From a virus (taxonomy: Duplodnaviria > Heunggongvirae > Uroviricota > Caudoviricetes), in IMG/VR virus record IMGVR_UViG_2869947659_000007, positions 1-26,870 of that record: a stretch of DNA of 26,870 nt; one strand, 5' to 3'. Below are positions 20,901 through 23,900 of the stretch, piece by piece; position 1 is the first letter of the stretch, and each line of letters starts with the position of its first letter. The position numbers are program-made.

Positions 20901-23900
20901 CAGCAGAGGTGGCATTGCTTTTTCGATAGCTGGTAACAACGCCTGAATTTTTTTAAGCGCATCAGGGGTGTCTTTCTCCACCCAGCGGAAAATTTTCTGA
21001 GTATTGCGAGCCAGGGCTTCCGGATGGCTGTCGTCATACAGTTCCGGGAACGTCATTCCCAGCTCGAAATACGCTTTGGTAATTTTCGCAGCCGGTACTT
21101 TTTCGCCGTCCGGATGCGCCCAGGCATTCATCGCCATGCGGATGTGTTCATGCTTGATTTTCATGAATCAACTCCCATCAGCTTTTTCGTAGTAGTTTTA
21201 TTCCTGCCAATAGTTAAAATTGCATCGGCAGAAAATAATCCGTTTGATGCAAGAGCGATTTTTTCAGCGTAATTTGTTTCGCCGGTATATTCTGTGCGAG
21301 GCAATTTTCCGTTATCCATCCATTTATAGATTGCTCTTTGGCTGACACCACAAACGTCGGCCACAACAGCAACGCGAACAGTTTTGATTACATCTTCAAG
21401 TGTTTTCTGGTTCATATCACCCTCACAATGTGAACTTTGAGTACATGCCATAACAGAACTGACAGTACATTCAAGAGCGAATATCATTGAACTTATGGTT
21501 CATGAAGATAAAGCGCGTAAAGAGTTCGCCAGTAGGCTTGCGCTAGCCTGTGAAAACGCTGGTTATGAACAACATGGAAGGCAGGCAGAAATTGCCCGTC
21601 GAATGAAATTAACACCAAAAGCGGTTAGCAAATGGTTTAATGGCGAAACAATTCCTCGCCGGGAGAAATTAAGGGAATTAGCAACACTAATAGGAACAAC
21701 ACCAACCTATCTTTTGGGAGAGGATACAGAAGAAAGTGGACAGGTACGTTTCTATCAGGAGTTAAATCCAAGACAAAAAATCATCATTGACCTTCTGGAC
21801 GAGCTCCCTGACAGTGAGACAGATGAACTTTTAAAAACTCTTGAAGAGAAAAAACAGAAGTACAATGCAATTTACGAAGAGTTAGCACGAAAGAAAAAAC
21901 AAAAAGCCTCTTAAACCAGCATAAATCCGGTAGCGCCTTCCTCCGGGTTTGTGCTTCACTTTATCCCATCTCATTTTTTTACACACAAAATGTACCATAA
22001 GCACTTTACAACAATGAACGCAAAGTACATTATATGCCTGCCACCCACCCCGCCCCACAGAATGCAGGGCAATACTTCGAGTTACCAGGCAGTGGTCAGG
22101 GGTTAAGTAGCCAGCCCGAGGCGTAAGAACATGACGGCAGGGTTCAACTTTAATAACTATGCAGCAGGTTTTTGTTCCGCTACCCCGGCGTTAAGGGGAA
22201 ATGAGGTCAGCATGGATACTATCGATCTTGGGTAATGACTCCAACTTACTGATAGTGTTTTATGTTCAGATAATGCCCGATGACCTTGTCATGCAGCTCC
22301 ACCGATTTTGAGAACGACAGTGACTTCCGTCCCAGCCTTGCCAGATGTTGTCTCAGATTCAGATTATGTCGCTCAATGCGCTGAGTGTAACGCTTGCTGA
22401 TAACGTGCAGCTTTCCCTTCAGGCGTGATTCATACAGCGGCCAGCCATCCGTCATCCATACCACGACCTCAAAGGCCGACAGCAGGCTCAGAAGACGCTC
22501 CAGTGTGGCCAGAGTGCGTTCACCGAAGACGTGCGCCACAACCGTCCTCCGTATCCTGTCATACGCGTAAAACAGCCTGCGCTGACGTGATTTAGCACCG
22601 ACGTAGCCCCACTGTTCGTCCATTTCAGCGCAGACAATCACATCACTGCCCGGTTGTATGCGCGAGGTTACCGACTGCGGCCTGAGTTTTTTAAGTGACG
22701 TAAAACCGTGTTGAGGCCAACGCCCATAATGCGTGCACTGGCGCGACATCCGACGCCATTCATGGCCATATCAATGATTTTCTGGTGCGTACCGGGCTGA
22801 GAGGCGGTGTAAGTGAACTGTAGTTGCCATGTTTTACGGCAATGAGAGCAGAGATAGCGCTGATGTCCGGCAGTGCTTTTGCCGTTACGCACCACGCCTT
22901 CAGTAGCGGAGCAGGAAGGACATCTGATGGAAATGGAAGCCACGCAAGCACCTTAAAATCACCATCATACACTAAATCAGTAAGTTGGCAGCATTACCCA
23001 AAAAATGACAAAGTAAGAAAACGCCAGGGAATTAAAGGTGGTTTTTACTGGACTACAGCAAAAAAATTATCTGTTGCAATCTCCCGCTGCATTACCGCAA
23101 TGGATGACAACGATTATGATGAAGACGACTTTAAAAAACCCGTCCGCGTCAATTTGCCCGTTGTTGACGACCTTCCGCCAGAAGGCGTGTTTGATACTGA
23201 ATTCTGCAACCGCTATGAAAAAGGCGGGAAAGATGGCATCACAATGACATTTATCGGCCCTTCCCCCTCTGTTCAGGACAAATCAGCCAGCACTGATAAT
23301 ACCAACATCAACGGCGAAGACATGACTGAGATTGAGGAGAGCATGCTTCTACCTGTCTCCGGTCAGGAACTGCCCATTCGTTGGCTTGCTCAACACGGCA
23401 GCGAAAAACCAGTAACGCACGTTTCACGCGACGAACTCCAGGCATTACACATTGCACGGGCTGAAGAACTACCGGCTGTTACTGCCCTGGCTATTTCGCA
23501 TAAAACCAGTCTGCTCGACTCGCTGGAGATTCGCGACCTCCACAAACTGGTTCGTGACACTGACAAAGTTTTCCCTAATCCTGGTAATTCAGACCTGGGA
23601 CTAATAACTGCTTTTTTCGAAGCATACTTGGACGCTGACTACACTGATCGGGGCCTGCTGACAAAAGAGTGGATGAAAGGAAATCGTGTTTCACGCATCA
23701 CCCGCACGGCTTCCGGTGCTAATGCTGGTGGTGGGAACAAAACCGATCGCAATCCGAATTTAGTACACACCCTCGACACACTGGATGTGGAGATTGCAGC
23801 AGCCACACTTCCGATGGATTTTAATATTTATGAAATTCCGGGCAGCGTTTATCGTCGCGCAAAAGAAGTAGTCCTGAAAAAAGAAAGTCCGTTCAAAGAA

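Follow-up and report, generated by a model that had tools for sequence, protein, structure and literature searches.

The window, by which we mean the whole stretch of 26,870 nt analysed here, carries two IS1, two IS600 and one IS3-family element. The first IS1, copy A, occupies positions 1-753 and is cut by the window start; it has the same orientation as the second, copy B, and differs from it by one base. Copy B is a complete element of 768 bp on the minus strand (22231-22998), whose terminal repeats, ORFs and flanks have been read directly. By pattern search, its terminal inverted repeats have been found as GGTAATGACTCCAACTTA at 22231 (+) and GGTAATGCTGCCAACTTACTGAT at 22998 (-), with 0-3 mismatches per repeat, against approximately zero matches expected by chance. 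The element thus shows the length of about 768 bp and the imperfect terminal inverted repeats of about 23 bp by which IS1 is recognised. The overlapping frames of insA (22668-22943, minus strand, 91 aa) and insB' (22246-22749, minus strand, 167 aa), likewise characteristic of IS1, are present on one strand, and the DNA is 99.2% identical to loci annotated as "IS1 family transposase" in E. coli.

Copy B lies between the remains of two genes read on the plus strand. As a reference for both, we have used an intact relative, a sequence from E. coli strain 20 (NZ_CP064847.1, here L001). On the left, an intact gene for a DicA-like HTH repressor of 139 aa is located at 21495-21914 (+; Pfam HTH_3, E = 1.8e-9), which shares 29% identity with DicA of K-12 (E = 5e-15) and is annotated in L001 as a helix-turn-helix protein. 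Its divergent partner genes (20739-21487, minus strand) are of the Rac ydaS/ydaT type and encode an HTH protein and a protein with a YdaT_toxin domain. The repressor gene is followed by a 300-nt spacer, in which no structured RNA has been detected (Rfam, E up to 1) and which folds no better than shuffled sequences (z-score +1.66). A promoter-like site upstream of ydfA, TTTACA-17-CATTAT at 22005-22033 (+), has been recovered by a consensus scan with 9/12 matches; judged by where it stands relative to ydfA in L001 and in Qin of K-12, it is a likely candidate for the promoter of a dicB-type operon. Of ydfA itself, an ATG, five further codons and 1 nt are left (22212-22230, +) before the gene is cut by IS1, with position 22212 corresponding to 2772 in L001. 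On the right of IS1, the surviving 5' coding stretch of an exonuclease gene (22999-23099, +) runs from base 2 of codon 14 to the end of codon 47 and has neither a start codon nor a ribosome-binding site. From the first available ATG, the remaining gene (23100-25400, +) encodes 766 aa with the Pfam domains PF06630 and PF16473.

The 9-mers that border copy B are unlike, tcgatcttg at 22222-22230 and caaaaaatg at 22999-23007. The G at 22231 is ambiguous, belonging either to IS1 or to the target, and a shift of the boundary by 1 nt still yields no repeat. A simple insertion leaves an 8-9 bp direct duplication on both sides, and on re-inspection no identical repeat of this kind has been found, so that the statement of the earlier note that the flanks differ and no target-site duplication exists has been confirmed. 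Both flanks are common in E. coli, as the left (21100-22230) and the right (22999-24200) are each at least 99% identical in hundreds of complete genomes. Aligned with L001, window 19441-22231 corresponds to 1-2791 with 99.2% identity and window 22999-26504 to 4501-8007 with 98.6% identity, on the same strand and in the same order. Between these two matches, 1709-1710 bp of L001 (2791/2792-4500) are absent from the window, and searching the whole 26,870 nt for the missing segment has not located it elsewhere. The flanks are thereby collinear and co-oriented with those of a relative holding extra DNA between them, as is expected for an IS-associated deletion. The conclusion drawn earlier that copy B does not represent a simple insertion is borne out by this absence of DNA, and the comparison with intact homologous prophages that had been proposed for defining the missing sequence gives, with L001, 1709-1710 bp. 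As L001 is a close relative and not the ancestor, the true size of the deletion may deviate from this value by a few bases, and the corresponding interval measures ∼1.6-2.2 kb among relatives. The interval, uninterrupted and over 80% or more of its length, occurs in 788 of the 5426 complete genomes of E. coli that were searched; the IS1-bridged arrangement occurs in none of them. Neither the same junction nor a single-insertion precursor has been found in these 5426 genomes, the GTDB species representatives, IMG/VR or the JGI metagenomes, which are collections poor in Shigella. Taken at the level of sequence comparison, these data establish that IS1 copy B marks a deletion of 1709-1710 bp in a defective Qin/Rac-like lambdoid prophage at serU.

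Further evidence on the right-hand junction comes from draft assemblies. The exact 766-aa product starting at ATG 23100 is found on two NCBI draft assemblies and bears the name "exonuclease [Shigella boydii]" in NCBI nr. An S. boydii draft contig (L002) is 100% identical to window 23006-26499, and its ends lie at IS1 copy B and at the IS600 interrupting the integrase; the position of its edge at IS1 lends independent support to the right-hand junction. The source of the window is most likely a chromosome of the Shigella boydii type. The possibility of an assembly artefact, in which the flanks would have been misjoined over a collapsed IS1 repeat while the 1.7 kb are really present in the genome, deserves attention, given that IS1 is highly repeated, that short-read assemblies break at IS1, and that the draft contigs L002 and L003 do stop at IS ends. 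We regard this as very unlikely, because joining sequences at random would seldom bring together two sites that belong to one prophage, are separated by 1.7 kb and keep their order and orientation. In addition, the independent draft contig begins 7 nt beyond this very end of IS1, with codons 1-13 of the exonuclease not contiguous there either, and the window does not hold the missing segment at any other place.

The content of the missing interval can be read from L001. Lost are all but 19 nt of ydfA (a DUF1391 gene starting at 2772 in L001, with Pfam DUF1391 found on the intact product), then ydfB, annotated as a fragment within 2791-4500, the ydfC region, the DicF sRNA (3765-3816; Rfam RF00039, 76.7 bits), dicB (3991-4179; Pfam DicB) and ydfD, a DUF1482 gene (4176-4367; Pfam DUF1482). 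Beyond ydfD, the loss extends over the intergenic region with the ribosome-binding site of the exonuclease, the spacer between the two genes in L001 being 93 nt, and over the first 13 exonuclease codons. The order dicA-ydfA-ydfB-ydfC-dicF-dicB-ydfD is annotated in Qin of K-12 and likewise in the record vB_EcoS-640R1. Of such a Qin-type dicB operon, nothing is left in the window beyond the repressor and 19 nt of ydfA, and no Rfam match to DicF has been obtained in it. The combination of Rac-type ydaS/ydaT partners with a Qin-type dicB leftward operon makes the immunity region a Rac/Qin mosaic. Regarding the lost functions, the earlier note had proposed an IS1-mediated deletion of pL-proximal genes, namely N-like, kil and recombination genes. 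The deletion stands, but N-like and recombination genes are absent from this place in the intact relatives examined, and for kil only a loose functional counterpart exists in the cell-division inhibitor DicB. As lambdoid prophages are mosaic and the length of the interval varies among relatives, one may also imagine that IS1 simply inserted into a variant of the prophage naturally lacking the dicB operon. Such an origin appears extremely improbable, since no 8-9-bp duplication is present and the breaks fall inside both neighbouring genes: ydfA stops after 6 codons, the exonuclease gene is without start or ribosome-binding site, and no natural module boundary would be expected at such points.

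The extent of the damage to the exonuclease gene depends on its true start. Position 22999 corresponds to 4501 in L001, 40 nt inside an annotated CDS of 813 aa (L001 4461-6902), and this intact gene begins with an ATG at 4461 that is preceded by GAGG 10 nt upstream. Both the ATG and the GAGG are kept in five of five intact homologues that have been aligned with the window (81-100% identity), whereas upstream of the GAGG the homology is lost in the most distant of the five. Between this ATG and the equivalent of the ATG at 23100, the variable columns among the five homologues are distributed as 14, 7 and 26 (of 47 each) over codon positions 1, 2 and 3, and the peptide is conserved. The conserved ATG and GAGG together with this coding-type variation place the real start of the exonuclease 141 nt upstream of 23100. 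Accordingly, intact homologues begin 141 nt upstream and not at 23100, and the proposed deletion of the 5' end has proved correct, as the GAGG ribosome-binding site, 13 codons and 1 nt are missing from the window. The remainder of the gene shows no indel relative to L001. The codon differences to L001, 19 non-synonymous and 13 synonymous, many of them in the acidic linker described below, have been considered as a sign of relaxed selection and set aside, as a single pairwise comparison of mosaic prophages is not interpretable in this respect. Pfam has likewise been dropped as evidence for the lost N-terminus, because the Exonuc_VIII match begins at profile position 48 in the truncated and in the intact L001 protein alike.

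In the protein itself, the N-terminal region of Exonuc_VIII (PF06630, E = 6.8e-36) is matched by residues 10-142 of the 766-aa product. At the C-terminus, where the RecE-type catalytic domain is expected, the Rv2179c-like 3'-5' exonuclease domain PF16473 is found instead (E = 7.9e-68), and the alignment to RecE of Rac-SA53 ends at residue 616 of 813. Judged from these domains, the exonuclease is not a RecE orthologue, as it joins the N-terminal Pfam region of RecE to an Rv2179c-like domain. It may be described as a mosaic of the PF06630 region, a long acidic linker and a DEDD-type PF16473 domain that replaces the RecE nuclease domain, and members of this mosaic family are widespread in E. coli prophages, adjoining xis/int. 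K-12 ydfE has been considered as a truncated homologue of the exonuclease and rejected on a BLASTP E-value of 3.2.

A mechanical reading of the plus strand joins IS1 to the exonuclease in one open frame of 858 codons with a TTG start (22824-25400), which comprises 58 IS1 codons antisense to insA, one junction codon and exonuclease codons 15-813. The frame had been pointed out earlier as an opening of the exonuclease back into IS1, and it is real, with the ATG at 23100 as the first in-frame ATG after IS1. At the right end of IS1, one of the three outward plus-strand frames is open (over 175 nt), and the remaining ones run into stops 15 and 23 nt short of it; an in-frame fusion is thus a one-in-three chance. 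Moreover, IS1 copy A gives rise to an outward ORF (579-1043) with the identical 58-codon leader, which runs into unrelated phage DNA. A special meaning of the in-frame fusion is therefore not retained; the frame that reads through the IS1 end is judged to be coincidental and the 858-codon ORF a mechanical artefact. In line with the earlier remark on the ATG at 23100, no Shine-Dalgarno sequence (AGGAGG-type core of at least 4 nt, located 4-12 nt upstream) has been found at this codon, compared with the GAGG 10 nt upstream of the L001 start, and none precedes the TTG at 22824 or the ATGs at 22842 and 22863. A consensus scan with a threshold of 9/12 has detected no outward plus-strand promoter near the right IS1 end, and the same scan has recovered the inward insA promoter on the minus strand. 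The best outward candidate identified by eye is TTGGCA (22985-22990) followed after 18 nt by CAAAGT (23009-23014), which reaches 8/12, with only 3/6 in the -10 hexamer, and remains below the scan threshold, so that it might at most act as a weak hybrid promoter; 8 nt separate the TTGGCA from the end of IS1.

Transcripts from the promoter upstream of ydfA would have to cross IS1 to reach the exonuclease, and IS1 is classically polar in both orientations. With a polar IS1 in the path, no Shine-Dalgarno sequence at any start and a coincidental ORF, the exonuclease gene is most likely silent, and as far as can be judged from its sequence, it is most likely a decapitated pseudogene. We consider it improbable that the exonuclease is still made, either as an IS1-fused protein from 22824, 22842 or 22863 or in shortened form from the ATG at 23100, be it through transcripts that traverse IS1 or through a hybrid promoter using the -35-like hexamer of the IS1 end. 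Such expression would be consistent with the 858 uninterrupted codons, which show no indel relative to the intact homologue, with the spacing of TTGGCA and CAAAGT described above, and with the record of IS1 as a source of fusion promoters as given in Table 1 of PMC9330008 (citing Prentki et al., 1986). Against it speak the lack of a Shine-Dalgarno sequence at every candidate start, the lack of a plus-strand promoter at 9/12 with the by-eye candidate at 8/12 and its -10 at 3/6, the one-in-three chance of an in-frame relation that recurs at copy A, and the otherwise wrecked state of the prophage, whose integrase is frameshifted and cut by IS600.

Regarding the origin of the deletion, the route that we judge somewhat more likely than not is an adjacent deletion made in one step, with IS1 transposing intramolecularly. 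IS1 would initially have inserted at one of two sites, in ydfA or at codon 14 of the exonuclease, and would later have attacked a target some 1.7 kb further along the same molecule. This would have eliminated the DNA in between together with one of the two 9-bp repeats of the original insertion, and a single IS1 would have remained in unchanged orientation. The route is preferred because it needs only a single prior insertion. Two unlike flanks would also be predicted if ydfA and codon 14 of the exonuclease had each received, in independent events, an IS1 copy of the same orientation with its own 9-bp duplication, and if homologous recombination between them had subsequently deleted the 1.7 kb and one IS1. 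This second history is a possible though less probable one. [quoted passage not shown] It demands two independent insertions in the same orientation within 1.7 kb and is less parsimonious, and neither single insertion has been found in the E. coli complete genomes, the GTDB representatives, IMG/VR or the JGI metagenomes. As the two routes lead to the same product, the one-step deletion and the two-copy recombination are indistinguishable from the sequence alone, and the consequences for the prophage are the same.

Several other features of the window have been recorded. Copy A truncates a phage tail-like ORF on the minus strand (region 732-1157); it has been considered as recombination partner of copy B but lacks support in this role, its visible flank, aggaattta, matching neither flank of copy B and the other flank lying outside the window. 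One IS600 copy, at 14603-15866, is bordered by the unlike 3-bp flanks cac and ctg, and the second (26505-26870) interrupts the integrase gene of the prophage at 26504. This integrase (25662-26506) is also frameshifted near 25940-25979 compared with L001, whose own copy is itself annotated as frameshifted. Its 3' end is found inverted together with serU, mtfA and asnT at 11179-12561 (L001 9399-8004), and the sequence from 12562 onward is not IS600. The inverted integrase end and the IS600 arrangement show that at least one further IS-linked rearrangement has affected the same prophage. The IS3-family element at about 3800-5100, which we take to be IS629/IS1203-like, contains an ALIL frameshift pseudoknot at 4113-4220 (Rfam, 101.3 bits). 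An ORF for a 2007-aa adhesin with Ig repeats (4918-10941) reads into this element and appears C-terminally truncated; it is yeeJ-like by its position beside asnT-mtfA, and within the gene a stretch of some 790 bp is repeated with 83% identity (6441-7222 against 7050-7831). In addition, a sok antitoxin RNA has been matched at 17220-17395 on the minus strand (RF01794, 118.9 bits), a strong match that places a hok/sok-type toxin-antitoxin locus in the prophage remnant.

The value of these observations lies mainly in annotation. The 858-codon ORF is best treated as an artefact, and the 766-aa "exonuclease" of S. boydii in NCBI nr is most likely the remnant of a 5'-truncated pseudogene that lacks its ribosome-binding site and 13 codons. 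To our knowledge, the junction at IS1 copy B has not been singled out anywhere. One more cryptic prophage has been stripped of its cell-division-inhibitor module (DicF, DicB and YdfD) by IS1 activity, in keeping with the IS-driven decay known from Shigella. This is ordinary IS-driven gene decay of a kind already known, which represents no new system and no departure from known IS biology, and the IS1-linked deletion opens no new question. That the loss has been other than neutral decay, be it that selection in a Shigella lineage favoured the removal of the toxic cell-division and lysis genes dicF, dicB and ydfD, or that expression driven from the end of IS1 once more yields the decapitated exonuclease, with a changed N-terminus and a retained function, seems quite improbable to us.

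Compared with the dicB operon of Qin in K-12, the intact relatives of the window prophage keep the same gene order from the repressor to the gene upstream of xis/int. Qin of K-12 is likewise damaged by an insertion sequence, as ydfE just downstream of the operon is cut by IS2E. The two differ in that the repressor of the window is only 29% identical to DicA, that in relatives of the window prophage ydfD is followed by an 813-aa exonuclease unrelated to YdfE, and that in the window the operon is gone except for 19 nt of ydfA. With regard to mechanism, the closest parallel is provided by the IS1-promoted adjacent deletions that Reif and Saedler reportedly described in 1975 for the gal region of E. 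coli. These are said to share with the present case a single IS1 kept in its orientation, the deletion of DNA on one side up to a new target, and the loss of the 9-bp duplication; the event considered here differs from the classical ones in being deduced from comparative sequence. As in the IS1 fusion promoters listed in Table 1 of PMC9330008 (after Prentki et al., 1986), a -35-like TTGGCA is found near the IS1 terminus and faces the decapitated gene, but the consensus scan has recovered no acceptable -10 at 16-18 nt, with the candidate read by eye at 8/12, and a Shine-Dalgarno sequence for translation is lacking. In Shigella, IS1 is the most abundant of the expanded insertion sequences, and genes are known to be lost there through disruption and deletion mediated by such elements (Hawkey et al., 2020, PMC7373316; Seferbekova et al., 2021, PMC8072062). 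The window shares with the decay described in these works the presence of IS1 and IS600, which are among the types reported as expanded, the genes disrupted by insertion sequences, and the IS-mediated deletions and rearrangements. Whereas those studies are genome-wide in scale, the present analysis concerns one junction.
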